Source: a virus. Taken from it: 64,000 nt of DNA. Location of the stretch: positions 7,522-71,521 of the IMG/VR virus record IMGVR_UViG_3300031857_000111, one strand, 5' to 3'. The first letter of the stretch is position 1, and every line of letters starts with the position of its first letter. This document shows positions 1 through 4,833 of this stretch, piece after piece. Both the position numbers and the translations under genes were made by a program. The notes beneath the pieces were generated by a model. That model saw nothing but the letters and a program-made list of their open reading frames with translations, was not told the DNA's origin and ran no database searches.

Positions 1-2
1 GC

Positions 3-1580
3 GGTAATAAGTTCTTTACAACGGGGGTGGATAAACAACTTGATTTTGTCATCCGCAGAGTGAAAAGCGCCGTTGACGGTATTAACTCGGTCTGTGATGG
101 AGGGGTTTTTGCGGGGGTGAATAAGTTTGAACCCCATACCTCTCAACACACTATGGTTGGTGTTGCCTCCTGCGCTGGTGTGCTGCTGATTACCGGAAGC
201 GTCGGGGTAAATGATGAGGTTGCGACCCGCAAAGCGGTCCCGAAGCAAGTCTGCATACCGCTGAATAGTGGCGTTAGGCATAAGAATTTCGTCAATCGCG
301 CATAGGCACTCATCACCGTCACCGTTAATGAATTTGACCATGAGCACGCCGCTCATCGGTGAGCGGTTAAAGTCGAGGCCCAAGTGTAGGTTGCACTTAC
401 CGTCGTCGTCAACGTAGGAGACAACGTGTTTGCTTCGTTGGAATGGCTGATAGACTTTACCCGTGGGGCTTTCCCATGAATTGAAATTGTTGATCCCCGA
501 CTGGACAAGATACGAGCGGTCATGCGAATCGACGTGCATGTTCCACACTTCATCGTGACCACTTTCTTTGCACGATACGACGAATACTTTTAGAGTTTTA
601 CGCTCCGCATCCCAACGCTCCGCAAGCCAATCAGGGAATAGCGGGAAAGATTTGCTGCATCGGATGGATACTTTCGGGGCGAGCAAGCTCGTGATCCGCG
701 AAGTCTTCATACCGAACTGACGCCCGATTTCCGCGTCTGACGCTCCTTGATTACGAAGACGCAGTAGGGGTTCAATTTTCTTTTTCGCATCAAAAAGGTA
801 AGCCTTTAGGTATTCCGACCACAACCAAAACTTAGTTTGTTTTTCTTGGCAATAGAGGCACCCTACGTCTGAGAGAAAACGAACGATATTTTCTTTGTTC
901 GAGTCAATGAGCAAAAGCCAGCAAGTATTGCCTCTTCGGCTATACTTAGAGACTTCACTTTTAATCCCTAGATCGGATAACAAGGAGCGCATCTGACTAA
1001 AAAATGCGGAACCATCAACTCCCGGATGCTTCGTCATTTCTAGTTTAAGCGTTCGGCATCCGCGCTGATTAGCATTGCGCTTTAGCGCGGAAGGGCTGTC
1101 TTCACTTTTCGGGGCGCTACCTTCCGCACCCCATATTGCGGCCATAAAAGCGCGCTTAACTTCTAGGCTTTCATGGGACATAACCCAAGAGGGGACGCTA
1201 AACTCTTGCCCTACTTTTTTGCCAATGACAACCCCAGCCTCTAAGAGCTTTTCTGTCCCGCTACCGGCTGCCGTTACTATGTAGTTGGACGCATACCCTG
1301 TTTTTTTGTGTTCATAGGGTTCTCTCATTTTTGGGATGATGCCACAGTCGAGCAAGTGTTTCGCGATCTTGTTCATGTCAGGCAACCCTTTCCCATAAAA
1401 AAAAGATTGCATGTCAACGTATTCACTTCCGCTTCGGCGCTTACGAACGACTTTACGGGCGTGCCCGTCCCCCAAATTATACGCTACCAACGCCGCCAAC
1501 TTAGCCTCTCGGCTTTGTGGTTCCCAATACACGGGGGTTTTCTCAAGATACTTAGCTTCTTGAAGGTTAACTACAGCCAT
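3..1580 (-). CDS. terL: Terminase large subunit, C-terminal fragment: C-intein with LAGLIDADG endonuclease (367 aa) fused to the nuclease domain; runs off the left edge
   Basis: Hand translation from ATG 1580, open to the edge: MAVVNLQEAK...LAALVAYNLGDGH...AFMAAIWGAEGS...VWNMHVDSHDRSYLVQSGINNFN|SWESPTGKVYQPF...LGLDFNRSPMS...IYPDASG...NPSITDRVNTVN...LFIHPRCKELI. These are TerL RNase H-like motifs. The ORF is not in the supplied track. Confidence 0.9.
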   Translation of the reverse strand, partial: MAVVNLQEAKYLEKTPVYWEPQSREAKLAALVAYNLGDGHARKVVRKRRSGSEYVDMQSFFYGKGLPDMNKIAKHLLDCGIIPKMREPYEHKKTGYASNYIVTAAGSGTEKLLEAGVVIGKKVGQEFSVPSWVMSHESLEVKRAFMAAIWGAEGSAPKSEDSPSALKRNANQRGCRTLKLEMTKHPGVDGSAFFSQMRSLLSDLGIKSEVSKYSRRGNTCWLLLIDSNKENIVRFLSDVGCLYCQEKQTKFWLWSEYLKAYLFDAKKKIEPLLRLRNQGASDAEIGRQFGMKTSRITSLLAPKVSIRCSKSFPLFPDWLAERWDAERKTLKVFVVSCKESGHDEVWNMHVDSHDRSYLVQSGINNFNSWESPTGKVYQPFQRSKHVVSYVDDDGKCNLHLGLDFNRSPMSGVLMVKFINGDGDECLCAIDEILMPNATIQRYADLLRDRFAGRNLIIYPDASGNQQHTSAGGNTNHSVLRGMGFKLIHPRKNPSITDRVNTVNGAFHSADDKIKLFIHPRCKELIT

Positions 1581-1809
1581 ATTAAACACCCACTTTCATT
1601 TTATGCTTCACAGAGGCGCGGAAAGTTTCACCTGTCTCAAGCGTGATTAGAGCGATTTGCTTATACCCCGTCTTACCAACCGCTTTGACTTCTACGGGGA
1701 CAACATCGCCAGCGTCAGTAAGATGGCATACTTTATTCCCAACCTCAATCTCTGAAATTGGTTTGAAACCGCCGCCGAAAAGGGGAACCTTGGTGCAACT
1801 TAGGTGGCA
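480..1809 (-). mobile_element. Intein in TerL, interrupted by a stop/restart (N-intein 1809-1585, C-intein 1580-480)
   Basis: Cys1 after FAAEFEA, block A CHLSCTKV, block B LETGETFRASVKH, two LAGLIDADG motifs, terminal FN followed by Ser+1. Excision gives FAAEFEA-SWESPTGKVY, a normal TerL sequence. Confidence 0.88.
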
Positions 1810-2493
1810 CGCTTCAAACTCGGCCGCGAACGTATGTTTATCCATAGACTGTCGCGCTTCGTTGACTTCGGATTCAGGAACAATACCCGCCTTGGCCGTA
1901 GTGATCGTAAACCCATAAATTCCTTTTTTGCCCGGATCAAGACCTTGGCAGTAAAGTTCGTAATACCACTTAGACCCCGCGCTAACTTTCGGGGTGCCCA
2001 GGAACAGAGCGTCACCCTGTTGATCCGCGAGTGCCGGACGAACAATCTTAGACCACATCGCCTCGTCAATGTCGGCGGCTTCGTCAAACACCGCAAACGA
2101 AATCGAGAGGCCGCGAAGGCGGTCAGGCACTTCCGCACCGAACAGGCGGATCATCGTTCCTGTGCGCTTAAGCACCAACGACATATCCGTGCGGTTGATT
2201 TCGCTAATCACTTCAGGCGGGATCATGTCTAGCAACTGCCGCCACATGATTTGCTTGGCCATCTTCAGCGTAGGGGCGATATAGACAACAAGCCCCTTCT
2301 CAACGCTATTGGCCGCCCGGTAAAGCTCGTGCATACAAAGGAACGACTTACCCGAACGTCGCCCCGCCGACACCACGCGATAGCGGGCAGGATGTAGATA
2401 GACATGCGCCTGCCAAGGGAGAAGGCCAAGATTGGCGATTGCCCTATCCTTCTCCTCCGGTTCGGGCTGCCAATTCAGTTTATCAATCGACAT
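1582..2493 (-). CDS. terL: Terminase large subunit, N-terminal ATPase fragment plus 75-aa N-intein
   Basis: Walker A AGRRSGKS, YIAPT, LRGLS, Walker B VFDEAA, coupling motif LGTP. The ORF ends in intein blocks A/B then TAA. Confidence 0.92.
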   Translation of the reverse strand: MSIDKLNWQPEPEEKDRAIANLGLLPWQAHVYLHPARYRVVSAGRRSGKSFLCMHELYRAANSVEKGLVVYIAPTLKMAKQIMWRQLLDMIPPEVISEINRTDMSLVLKRTGTMIRLFGAEVPDRLRGLSISFAVFDEAADIDEAMWSKIVRPALADQQGDALFLGTPKVSAGSKWYYELYCQGLDPGKKGIYGFTITTAKAGIVPESEVNEARQSMDKHTFAAEFEACHLSCTKVPLFGGGFKPISEIEVGNKVCHLTDAGDVVPVEVKAVGKTGYKQIALITLETGETFRASVKHKMKVGV

Positions 2494-3191
2494 TAGACTT
2501 CGCCTTCGTCGTCATCCTCGCCCGCGTCAAGCTGGTCAAGGACCGCACGCTTCTTAACCAGAAGCGGCTTGACTGTATCCTTGTTCTTCATCAAAGGCGC
2601 GAGGTTGCGGTTGCGATGCTCTTCTTCATTGGCCCTGCCCACCGTGGTCGCCAACTGCCCAAGCGACTTGGTGAGACGATTGAGGTTAAGGCGCACCAAC
2701 TCTCGCTTACTATCGTCTTGTGACTCAATCTCTAGGTGCCCAATTTCGTTTTCCATAAGATCAGCAACCCGGTCAATGATGCTATCGAGACGCTTGGTGC
2801 GGGCACGGATTTTCTTCAACCGTTCGGCCACTTCAGCGGCAGCCGTCAGCACAACCTCATCTTGGATTTGGGAGTTGCCGCGAAGCATCCGTAAAGCCTG
2901 CCTAGGCGTCTCATCCCCGTTAAGCATCAAGGCCCTTGCCGCATCGGCTACGCGAGGTTCTAAGTTTCTAGTCCACTTGTAACGGGAAATGCGATTTGAG
3001 ATAGCTTGTGAGGTAATGCCCTTGGCTTCGGGGAGGGCAGCGATATCCTTCAGCGACCAACCAATTCTGTAATAGTATTCAAGGGTTTCCCAATCTGCAC
3101 CCGAGCGATAAGCGCGCGTCTTTTTCTTCTTCCGCGAGACTTTCATCCCCGGCTTGATCGGAACTACTTTTGCGGCGCTATCTTCGGACAT
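2493..3191 (-). CDS. terS: Terminase small subunit (N-terminal HTH)
   Basis: DWETLEYYYRIG.SLKDIA...GITSQAISNRISRYKWTR HTH, coiled coil, TAATG overlap with terL. Confidence 0.75.
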   Translation of the reverse strand: MSEDSAAKVVPIKPGMKVSRKKKKTRAYRSGADWETLEYYYRIGWSLKDIAALPEAKGITSQAISNRISRYKWTRNLEPRVADAARALMLNGDETPRQALRMLRGNSQIQDEVVLTAAAEVAERLKKIRARTKRLDSIIDRVADLMENEIGHLEIESQDDSKRELVRLNLNRLTKSLGQLATTVGRANEEEHRNRNLAPLMKNKDTVKPLLVKKRAVLDQLDAGEDDDEGEV

Positions 3192-3330: not shown

Positions 3331-4833
3331 ATGCCGGTAAACACGCCTTCAGAGTCCTATAAAGAACACGCCGACGATTGGCGGCTGATCCGCGATGTTA
3401 TCGAAGGCGCTAAAGCGGTTCGGGCGGGGGGTGACAAGTATCTCCCTAAGCTTACCGGCATGGACTATATGGAATATGCCGCCTACGCTAATCGGGCGCA
3501 GTTCTTTAACGCCACGGCCCGCACCGTCAATGGTCTTGTTGGGGCGGTATTCCGCCGCGAACCTAAAATCATTCTAGGCGACGCAAACGAGTCTCTTCGC
3601 CCTTTGCTTGACCGCTGCACAATTGACAACCAATCCTTCCTCTCCTTCTCCCGCCACATTTTCCGCGAAACCCTTTCTATGGGGCGAGTTGGCGCGCTTG
3701 TGGACGCCCCGGCCAATGGTGGCATCCCCTATTTCACGTCTTACCCGGCTGAAAGCATCACCAACTGGCGCGTAGTCAAGATGCCAGACGAGCGCGTGGT
3801 TGCCGATCAAGTCGTGCTTTGCGAATACCGTGCCGTGCCTGCCGCTGATGGTTTTGGTTCGGATGAAGAGAAATATTACCGCGTTCTTTTCCTTGATAAC
3901 GATGGGCGCTACGGGCAGCAAATTTATGTTGAACAAAAGTCTCTCGACGGGCGTTCTCAATACGCTTTGGTTGGCACAACCTACCCCTCTCTCCCCGGTG
4001 CGGGCGGTTTCTACAACGATATGCCTTTTGTGTGCTTCAATGCTCGCGGAACGGGATTGAAGATTGAGAAGTCGCCTATTCTCGATATTGCAGAACTTAA
4101 CAAGCTGCATTTCCAGCGTTCGGCGCAACTTGCTCACGGCCAATTTTATACCGCAACCCCGACCTATTGGGCTATGGCTCCGGTCAATAACGACGACGTA
4201 ACCTACCGCGTCGGCCCCAACACGGTTTGGCTTGTGGAGCAGCCCAACGGCTGCGGCATCCTTGAATACCGTGGCGAGGGCCTGAAATATCTTGAAAGTG
4301 CTTGCAACCAACTTGAACAGCAAATGTCCGGTCTAGGTGCTCGCCTCGTCAGTGATCGCAAGAACACGGCTGCCGAAGCCTCTGATGTGGCTGCGATGCG
4401 CGATAAGGGTGAGACTTCCCTTCTGCATGAGATTGTCTCGGCTATCGACACCGGCCTTACCGACCTTCTAAAGACTTGGGTGCGGTGGCAGGGCCGTAAT
4501 CCCAAGGACGTGTCCGTTCGTCTCAACCGCGACTTCGTTGGTGCTGCCATCGAATACCGGACTTGGTTGCAGCTTGATCGCGCACACGAGAAGGGCGATA
4601 TTGATGACGAGACTTACTATCAGGTTCTTTTTGAGGGCGAAATGTTGCCTGCATCGTTTACGCCCCAAGATATTCCTGAGTTGATTAAGAAGGCTGAAGC
4701 GAAGCGCGCCAAGATTAAGCGCGAAGAAGAAGCCGCCAAGATGCGCGAGATTGAAGCGAAGCGCGCAAAAACATCGTCGGATAGTAGTGGTGATAACAGC
4801 AACGACGATGACAAAGACGATAGCAACTCTTAA
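3331..4833 (+). CDS. Portal protein (DUF4055-like)
   Basis: YLPK...YAAYANRAQFFNATARTVNGLVG.VF, PILDIAELNKLHFQRSA, LGARL motifs; 500 aa; first gene of the head block. Confidence 0.85.
   Translation: MPVNTPSESYKEHADDWRLIRDVIEGAKAVRAGGDKYLPKLTGMDYMEYAAYANRAQFFNATARTVNGLVGAVFRREPKIILGDANESLRPLLDRCTIDNQSFLSFSRHIFRETLSMGRVGALVDAPANGGIPYFTSYPAESITNWRVVKMPDERVVADQVVLCEYRAVPAADGFGSDEEKYYRVLFLDNDGRYGQQIYVEQKSLDGRSQYALVGTTYPSLPGAGGFYNDMPFVCFNARGTGLKIEKSPILDIAELNKLHFQRSAQLAHGQFYTATPTYWAMAPVNNDDVTYRVGPNTVWLVEQPNGCGILEYRGEGLKYLESACNQLEQQMSGLGARLVSDRKNTAAEASDVAAMRDKGETSLLHEIVSAIDTGLTDLLKTWVRWQGRNPKDVSVRLNRDFVGAAIEYRTWLQLDRAHEKGDIDDETYYQVLFEGEMLPASFTPQDIPELIKKAEAKRAKIKREEEAAKMREIEAKRAKTSSDSSGDNSNDDDKDDSNS

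Follow-up and report, generated by a model that had tools for sequence, protein, structure and literature searches.

A phage terminase gene broken within an intein, with a LAGLIDADG endonuclease domain on the C-terminal fragment

Results

The terL gene is divided inside an intein

How could a phage make its large terminase subunit (TerL) when the gene carries a stop codon in the middle of an intein? The question is raised by terL of an uncultured freshwater phage, found at the start of the 64,000-nucleotide window analyzed here, which is bases 7522-71521 of the 71,521-base IMG/VR virus record IMGVR_UViG_3300031857_000111. The gene lies on the minus strand as two adjacent open reading frames (ORFs) whose junction reads GGT GTT TAA T ATG, with ORF1 ending in the N-terminal intein fragment (IntN) and ORF2 beginning with the C-terminal fragment (IntC). 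From the sequence and from a structural model, we consider this to be very probably a genuine natural split intein, which would join the two TerL halves by trans-splicing and which has its endonuclease domain on the C-fragment. The elements of the locus are listed below, with lengths in amino acids (aa).

2493-1582 including the TAA, minus strand: ORF1, 303 aa, the TerL ATPase plus 75 aa of intein
1810-2493, minus strand: TerL N-extein (ATPase), ORF1 residues 1-228, C-terminal end ...FAAEFEA
1585-1809, minus strand: IntN, 75 aa, ORF1 residues 229-303, with Cys1 in CHLSC, block B in ...FRASVKHKM and the tail ASVKHKMKVGV
1578-1584, minus strand: the break, with TAA at 1584-1582, a spacer T at 1581 and the ORF2 ATG at 1580-1578
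From the ATG at 1580 past the window start, minus strand: ORF2, 579 aa, 367 aa of intein plus the TerL nuclease domain
1515-1580, minus strand: first 22 residues of ORF2, HINT-fold strands between the break and the endonuclease
651-1514, minus strand: LAGLIDADG homing-endonuclease domain, ORF2 residues ~23-310
1464-1499, minus strand: LAGLIDADG motif 1, LAALVAYNLGDG
1116-1148, minus strand: LAGLIDADG motif 2, FMAAIWGAEGS
702-764, minus strand: weak helix-turn-helix (HTH_68, E 0.024 only)
480-650, minus strand: splicing blocks F and G, ORF2 residues 311-367, final residues ...VDSHDRSYLVQSGINNFN
1-479, minus strand: TerL C-extein (nuclease), starting SWESPTGKVY, with 160 further bases outside the window (L001:1341-1500)

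These ORFs and translations agree with the initial annotation, which had described a terL of two ORFs joined by GTT TAA T ATG, the first an ATPase with 75 aa of intein and the second 367 aa of intein with the nuclease, and which had pointed out that the deletion of one base would fuse the frames. Relative to ORF1, ORF2 is read in the +1 frame, which before the ATG stays open over no more than 5 codons. The intein spans exactly window 480-1809; its part in ORF1 ends in ...FRASVKHKMKVGV, and its part in ORF2 ends in ...GINNFN, after which the extein resumes with SWESPTGKVY... (the 3' part of ORF2 beyond the window was taken from the same virus record, L001). The Pfam family Terminase_6N matches ORF1 with E 9.7e-6 and 25.8 bits against a cut-off of 22.

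Intein-less alleles and conserved splicing residues

The N-extein is 70-81% identical to the TerL of 24 IMG/VR loci, all of which are without an intein, and the C-extein is 74-82% identical to intein-less relatives. In 23 of these 24 close relatives the junction EF(E/L)A-S(W/F)ESPTGKVY is uninterrupted, and the 24th locus stops before the site. Because the intein-less alleles run continuously across the site, removal of the 442 intein residues would give a standard TerL, which bears out the prediction in the initial annotation that joining the exteins yields a canonical FAAEFEA-SWESPTGKVY.

Both ends of a class 1 intein are present, with C229 in ORF1 and N367 followed by S368 in ORF2. The motif that we take to be block B (TxxH-type) reads S-V-K-H, with Ser in place of Thr, and its His, H297, is invariant in 13 rows; indeed C229, S294 and H297 are all invariant in the 13 N parts compared, split and contiguous together, and among 6 split forms C1, H69 (block B) and K72-V73 of IntN are invariant. 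At the other end, conservation among 12 split C-halves reaches at least 90% for N367 and S368, and the sequence VDSHDRSYL, presumably block F, is conserved among split C-halves. The Pfam Hint profile gives 17.8 bits on IntN (E 0.0027), below its cut-off of 29.7, and the Pfam Intein_splicing profile has no match on ORF2. Compared with the related locus L078, the exteins and splicing blocks are 79-87% identical and show 0.07-0.15 nonsynonymous substitutions per site (dN), with synonymous substitutions per site (dS) at 1.1-1.7 or saturated. A distant C-half, P0005, carries Pfam PF17289, which we take to be the Terminase_6C family.

The endonuclease domain on the C-fragment

In Pfam, ORF2 scores 28.7 bits with LAGLIDADG_3, for which the cut-off is 22.5. 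The acidic residues of its two LAGLIDADG motifs, D38 and E153, do not vary among 12 split C-halves. When the C-half was folded alone from the 12 aligned C-halves, the predicted local distance difference test (pLDDT) score was above 90 over most of residues 20-330 and about 30 over 340-378, where blocks F and G lie. The nearest solved folds found with Foldseek are PI-PfuI (1dq3, E 2.8e-8) and I-DmoI (template-modeling score 0.70-0.76 on target), while a sequence search of the PDB with the C-half profile returned a designed helix-turn-helix repeat only. The endonuclease, which had been called apparently intact from the sequence, thus has an open frame, invariant acidic residues, a confidently predicted core and a fold like that of I-DmoI and PI-PfuI, and sequence and fold together predict a monomeric, two-motif LAGLIDADG nuclease that may be active.

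Two further proteins, P0033 (463 aa) and P0037 (298 aa), are relatives of the nuclease domain without C-terminal splicing blocks, P0033 ending in Cys-rich repeats; they may be free-standing derivatives.

The break is present in separate assemblies

Exact copies of the 303-aa ORF1 occur on 15 contigs and of the 579-aa ORF2 on 17 (JGI, Logan, ENA, NCBI), and all sampled words of window 1100-2100 are present in 10 DNA runs. The DNA contigs of runs X1 and X4 have 0 differences over window 1-2600, the RNA-library contigs X11 (1058-1631) and X12 (1559-1750) span the junction with no indel, and the junction holds no long homopolymer. The initial annotation had allowed for a sequence error at this point; that suspicion is refuted by the recurrence of the break in separate assemblies and in relatives down to about 30% identity.

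The break recurs in relatives

The homologue search that had been proposed in the initial annotation to learn whether the break is conserved was run, and the stop/start break recurs on both the N side and the C side. For the N side, a profile of six N-fragments was compared with a 90%-clustered protein database and matched 42 proteins, of which two are the window lineage and two are weak matches in unrelated proteins; 36 of the 38 fetched matches stop 1-12 aa past block B, and the remaining 2 are contiguous. Close variants of the N-half have KVGV, KVGA or KVGN before an identical stop, and L078, whose N-extein is 86% identical to that of the window, has the junction GGT AAT TAA A ATG. For the C side, the 370-aa C part was searched exhaustively with HMMER against a 50%-identity representative library, giving 264 matches, 48 of which cover the query from end to end; 9 of these 48 begin with Met at the alignment position of ORF2, the other full-length matches being contiguous TerL-inteins or the same intein in different contexts. 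P0005 and P0052 are two further split forms, and P0005 also begins with M at the break position.

The two ORFs are visible in the DNA of seven lineages (the window, L078, L079, L083, L087, L098 and L101), and L095 and L096, from different samples, carry the junction of L087. Cellular genomes are included: L098 is a prophage contig with a split terL in the isolate genome of Chelativorans composti JCM 17863, and P0165, which by eye is close to the N-half of L079, lies on a 2.65-Mb contig and has the NCBI name 'terminase large subunit domain-containing protein', with Methylocaldum szegediense as its source. Contiguous relatives exist too (P0018, P0019, P0195, L080, L084 and L085). Across the position of the break these read HKMRIGGRVLCLIDCAYLEKAPVYF in L085 and HKFKVTVDGIGSQVELEDAEWVEQAPVFFNP in P0018, and the window reads HKMKVGV-stop followed by MAVVNLQEAKYLEKTPVYWEP; the first 22 residues of ORF2 align with the stretch that follows block B in the contiguous relatives, and because those relatives align through it, the cut can be placed in the turn just after block B with essentially no residue lost.

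The wider searches were sparse. Phages in GenBank gave no match by DNA, nor by protein for the intein C part, and scans of viral contigs with the C part of the window intein itself or with a two-row alignment found no relative, while broader alignments found some. In the metagenome-contig scan L078 was the sole match, and in the genome-contig scan L099 and L100, from metagenome-assembled genomes of Woesearchaeota, showed 26-27% identity over part of the nuclease.

A second intein was seen in some of these terminases. TerL of L083 (802-4733, plus strand) is in three pieces, with a second intein near the ATPase ...FIG|C site that is broken directly before its first LAGLIDADG motif (TTG/ATG MNNDIAYFLGLW) and has the nuclease on the C side. 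Five database clusters of 441-449 aa (P0168, P0175, P0183, P0184 and P0196) are of the type of the L083 middle piece, and in P0016 both TerL inteins are contiguous. By eye, near-identical TerL N-halves occur with the upstream intein (P0166, 727 aa) and without it (P0185 and P0188, 298 and 294 aa), which looks like a gain/loss polymorphism of the upstream intein.

A model of the two fragments together

The break lies 4 residues past the block B His, and on IntC some 22 residues of the splicing fold come before the 288-residue LAGLIDADG domain. Since these ~22 residues precede the first LAGLIDADG helix, the break is neither at the canonical endonuclease site nor near the N-terminus. In the two-chain model, the C-half meets IntN at residues 3-22, 256-264 and 326-366, the N-terminal contacts in detail being residues 3-7, 9, 12, 15-17, 19-20 and 22. 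The model scored 0.83 and the best of 3 controls 0.00, a level reached by 58 of 80 solved complexes and by 2 of 110 mismatched pairs, counts that apply only roughly since the model was run on alignments made for this analysis; the runs agreed in at least 94% of contacts, with a partner pLDDT of at least 82. Because solved inteins exist, this result speaks for a likeness to known inteins rather than for binding.

Discussion

Comparison with known split inteins

An obvious comparator is the canonical split intein, as in cyanobacterial DnaE, gp41-1, NrdJ-1 and IMPDH-1, which likewise consists of two polypeptides, each an extein half with an intein fragment and expected to trans-splice, and which likewise occurs in phages and in essential DNA enzymes (PMC2677866, in the part of that paper available). 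According to the same part of the text, all natural split inteins then known broke at the endonuclease insertion region, bar one terminase case with a 122-aa C part; the canonical break falls between motifs N4 and C2, with an IntN of 88-105 aa, an IntC of 33-54 aa and no nuclease on either. Comparable figures, an IntN of about 100 aa and an IntC of 35-40 aa, are called typical in an excerpt of a second source, which regards a short IntN as atypical (PMC10189870), and in the portion seen of a third, natural split inteins are termed split mini-inteins (PMC6801210). In contrast, the window intein is broken before N4 rather than at the endonuclease insertion site, has an IntN of 75 aa, and keeps the whole LAGLIDADG domain on an IntC of 367 aa.

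The fractured genes of Dassa et al. (2009) are similar in a different respect, in that both halves and a homing nuclease likewise occupy one locus as contiguous, possibly mobile DNA (PMC2677866, part seen). There the nucleases are free-standing GIY-YIG or Vsr-like genes, and LAGLIDADG and HNH enzymes 'could fracture genes', which was not observed there. In the window, by comparison, the nuclease is not a free-standing gene: the LAGLIDADG domain is in frame within the C-fragment, and a single base separates the two ORFs.

Atypical split inteins (the fractured terminase, AceL-TerL/GOS-TerL and PolB16 OarG) likewise have a break toward the N-terminus and a long C-fragment, and some are in TerL, with an IntN as short as 15 aa and an IntC of up to 168 aa (PMC10189870, in the excerpt available). 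In that excerpt their IntC has no nuclease and their IntN is short; the IntN of the window has 75 aa, contains blocks A and B, and is followed by the break, and so it differs from an IntN of ~15-37 aa that is broken before block B. AceL-TerL and GOS-TerL fragments reportedly fall within a span of 15-37 aa for IntN and ~100-168 aa for IntC. A further route is suggested by a preprint, seen in part, in which a stop codon in a degrading nuclease can create a split intein and which has one split intein in phage Zeenon (bioRxiv 10.1101/2025.01.02.630785).

The contiguous TerL-inteins named above are homologous, with ~33-37% identity in IntC, the same EF(x)|C...N|S/C site and the same domain order; each is a single ORF, where that of the window is stopped and restarted in the turn past block B. 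Among solved structures the analogues are PI-PfuI (1dq3) and PI-SceI, the nuclease fold resembling PI-PfuI and I-DmoI. The view that the break fits neither published pattern, put forward in the initial annotation, therefore holds against the lengths given in the parts of these sources that were available, on all three points of a position after block B, a 75-aa IntN and a nuclease on IntC. In the full-text literature, with subscription journals largely outside its scope, we found no description of a natural split intein with an endonuclease domain in one fragment, and the window intein looks like an undescribed kind of natural split intein.

How TerL could be made from two ORFs

In the mechanism that we propose, ORF1 and ORF2 would be co-transcribed, and ORF2 would be initiated separately, by translational coupling, at the ATG one base past the stop of ORF1, with the help of a moderate Shine-Dalgarno-like stretch. 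The anti-Shine-Dalgarno duplex before this ATG is predicted at -6.0 kcal/mol, a value equalled or bettered at 8.65% of 2000 random positions and at 24% of the start sites of 66 long ORFs; in the group of L079, L083, L087 and L098, conserved AAG GTN codons 4-11 bases upstream of the start may, from their position, serve as a ribosome-binding site. The 75-aa IntN would then dock on the C-fragment, whose first ~22 residues together with blocks F and G would complete the splicing fold, and Cys1, the block B His, Asn367 and Ser+1 would join the exteins by trans-splicing into a 440-aa TerL (228 + 212). The released two-chain intein would retain the whole monomeric double-LAGLIDADG nuclease on its C-fragment, and as its DNA has stayed in one piece, the element could in principle have kept its ability to home.

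A first alternative is that the separately made halves act as a two-subunit terminase, tethered by the intein pieces or by nothing, and that no splicing takes place. The ATPase and nuclease of TerL are separate domains with the break between them, the predicted association of the intein halves could by itself tether them, and there is a precedent in a ribonucleotide reductase that, after being fragmented by a mobile element, assembles through interaction domains without splicing (PMC3045599, part of the text). We nevertheless regard such a terminase as improbable, since split forms across deep divergence have retained Cys1, the His of block B, the terminal Asn and a +1 Ser/Cys, which tethering alone would not require.

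The main rival is a programmed +1 ribosomal frameshift near the end of ORF1, which would give a contiguous TerL-intein precursor for cis-splicing; it is the main rival because ORF2 is in the +1 frame at all seven DNA junctions. It would also make sense of L087 and L079, where +1 reading right after K(F)KV gives KV-TV..., like the contiguous KVTVDG of P0018. Against it, the seven junctions share no slippery site, their last sense codons being GTT, AAT, GTC, TCA, GGC, GCC and TGT, none of which, by general codon-anticodon rules, re-pairs well in +1; the last residue before the stop is V, A or N even among close variants, the stop falls anywhere from 1 to 12 codons past block B, and the tails after K(F/M)KV are unrelated. 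Moreover, wherever a split form was seen in DNA, the break carries a start codon (ATG or GTG), and it is there that gene callers begin 12 diverged C-halves; transcriptional slippage, as a variant of the same idea, would lack the homopolymer runs to permit it. We give the frameshift an even smaller chance than the two-subunit terminase.

A last alternative is that the break comes from faulty sequencing or assembly, or that the element is decaying and its terL was inactivated recently. This would agree with the single base whose loss would fuse the frames and with a record that is a metagenome assembly (84% complete by CheckV), but its probability is negligible and it is excluded by the identical sequence in numerous assemblies, which differ in source and year, and in the RNA-library contigs, by an equal break in relatives at 30-88% identity and in isolate genomes, by the strong purifying selection on both halves, and by the lack of a long homopolymer at the junction.

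Several observations count against a trans-splicing intein with a working nuclease and should be set beside this argument. Its support is sequence conservation together with a model that could score well simply because the predictor has learned from solved inteins. The C-half ORF stands in the +1 frame at all 7 DNA junctions although stops, tails and start codons differ; the uniform frame may reflect shared ancestry, that is, a few inherited one-base insertions, which is the sole explanation we can offer and short of which it is unexplained. Both the window and L078 have a G-rich, Shine-Dalgarno-like stretch just before the last sense codon and stop, as the frameshift would favor, and this arrangement loosely resembles what we take to be the +1 site of prfB. 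Runs X1 and X4 may be source samples, and the RNA-library contigs do not prove transcription.

The remaining points of this kind concern the nuclease. Between the window (651-1514) and L078 (L078:1030-1900) its core has 84 of 199 residues identical and 30 gap positions, while the splicing parts have 48 of 57 and 65 of 75 residues identical, and because the core has diverged so much further than the splicing parts, the constraint on the nuclease is much weaker. Its dN is 0.61 and its dS saturated, so that dN/dS is not computable, with proportions of nonsynonymous and synonymous differences of 0.42 (pN) and 0.91 (pS), by which the core is still under constraint; in sequence terms this divergence suggests fast evolution or an exchange of the nuclease module. 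L078 is also without the helix-turn-helix segment (25 gap positions). In L101 (2720-2900) motif 1 reads GYLTGNGS, with GNG for GDG, and because an Asn stands at the acidic position of motif 1, the L101 nuclease may be inactive.

How often the split arose

A tree of C parts was built from 61 rows, made up of 48 representative matches, P0005, P0009 and 11 locus translations; of 161 stored sequences, 9 duplicates of the window lineage were removed before the phmmer step, and rows were dropped if they did not cover the query from <=30 to >=340 or if they spanned >=450 residues. P0052, which is split and only partly aligned, is outside the tree. The 15 split rows are intermixed with contiguous rows, and the split state changes 7 times on the tree, with at least 2 of these changes forced by well-supported (starred) branches. 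The split rows L079, L087, L083, P0014, P0015 and P0017, for example, cluster together and adjoin the contiguous P0016, P0018, P0026 and L080. The hypothesis that all split forms make up one clade is rejected by an approximately unbiased (AU) test (p 0.00165). The break may have arisen more than once; because the AU test is post hoc and an exchange of nuclease domains could mislead it, we do not claim a recurrent origin as established. The conserved K-F-K-V codons (AAG GTN) may have a ribosome-binding site built in, and a viable restart would then arise easily at this turn.

It is conceivable, if rather doubtful, that the split forms belong to a widespread mobile class of split inteins, broken in the turn after block B yet with an active nuclease on the C-fragment, which trans-splice and still home as one unit of DNA.

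Implications

If such a mobile class exists, splitting would precede loss of the nuclease, the reverse of the usual order in which nuclease decay gives a mini-intein that then splits. A large natural family broken after block B with a nuclease would make splitting and loss of mobility separable in intein evolution. The split TerL intein would also place an observed example between contiguous nuclease-bearing inteins and fractured genes, and would offer protein engineering a new, naturally evolved split position (IntN ~75 aa). The proposal can be tested directly, since cultured strains (Chelativorans composti JCM 17863 and the Methylocaldum szegediense record) carry copies in their prophages. 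Annotators should be wary of calling terminase genes of about 300 and 580 aa 'truncated', since these may be functional halves.

Neighboring genes and another intein

Two ORFs lie beside terL in the window.

2493-3191, minus strand: 232-aa ORF whose stop overlaps the terL start, with no Pfam match
3331-4833, plus strand: divergent 500-aa ORF, DUF4055, portal-like by position

The 232-aa ORF is, by its position, probably the small terminase. Just outside the window start (L001:1-1344, plus strand), the phage carries a flavin-dependent thymidylate synthase (Pfam Thy1) interrupted by a separate intein, which has NUMOD4 and HNH_3 endonuclease motifs and ends in ...VVHN|S.

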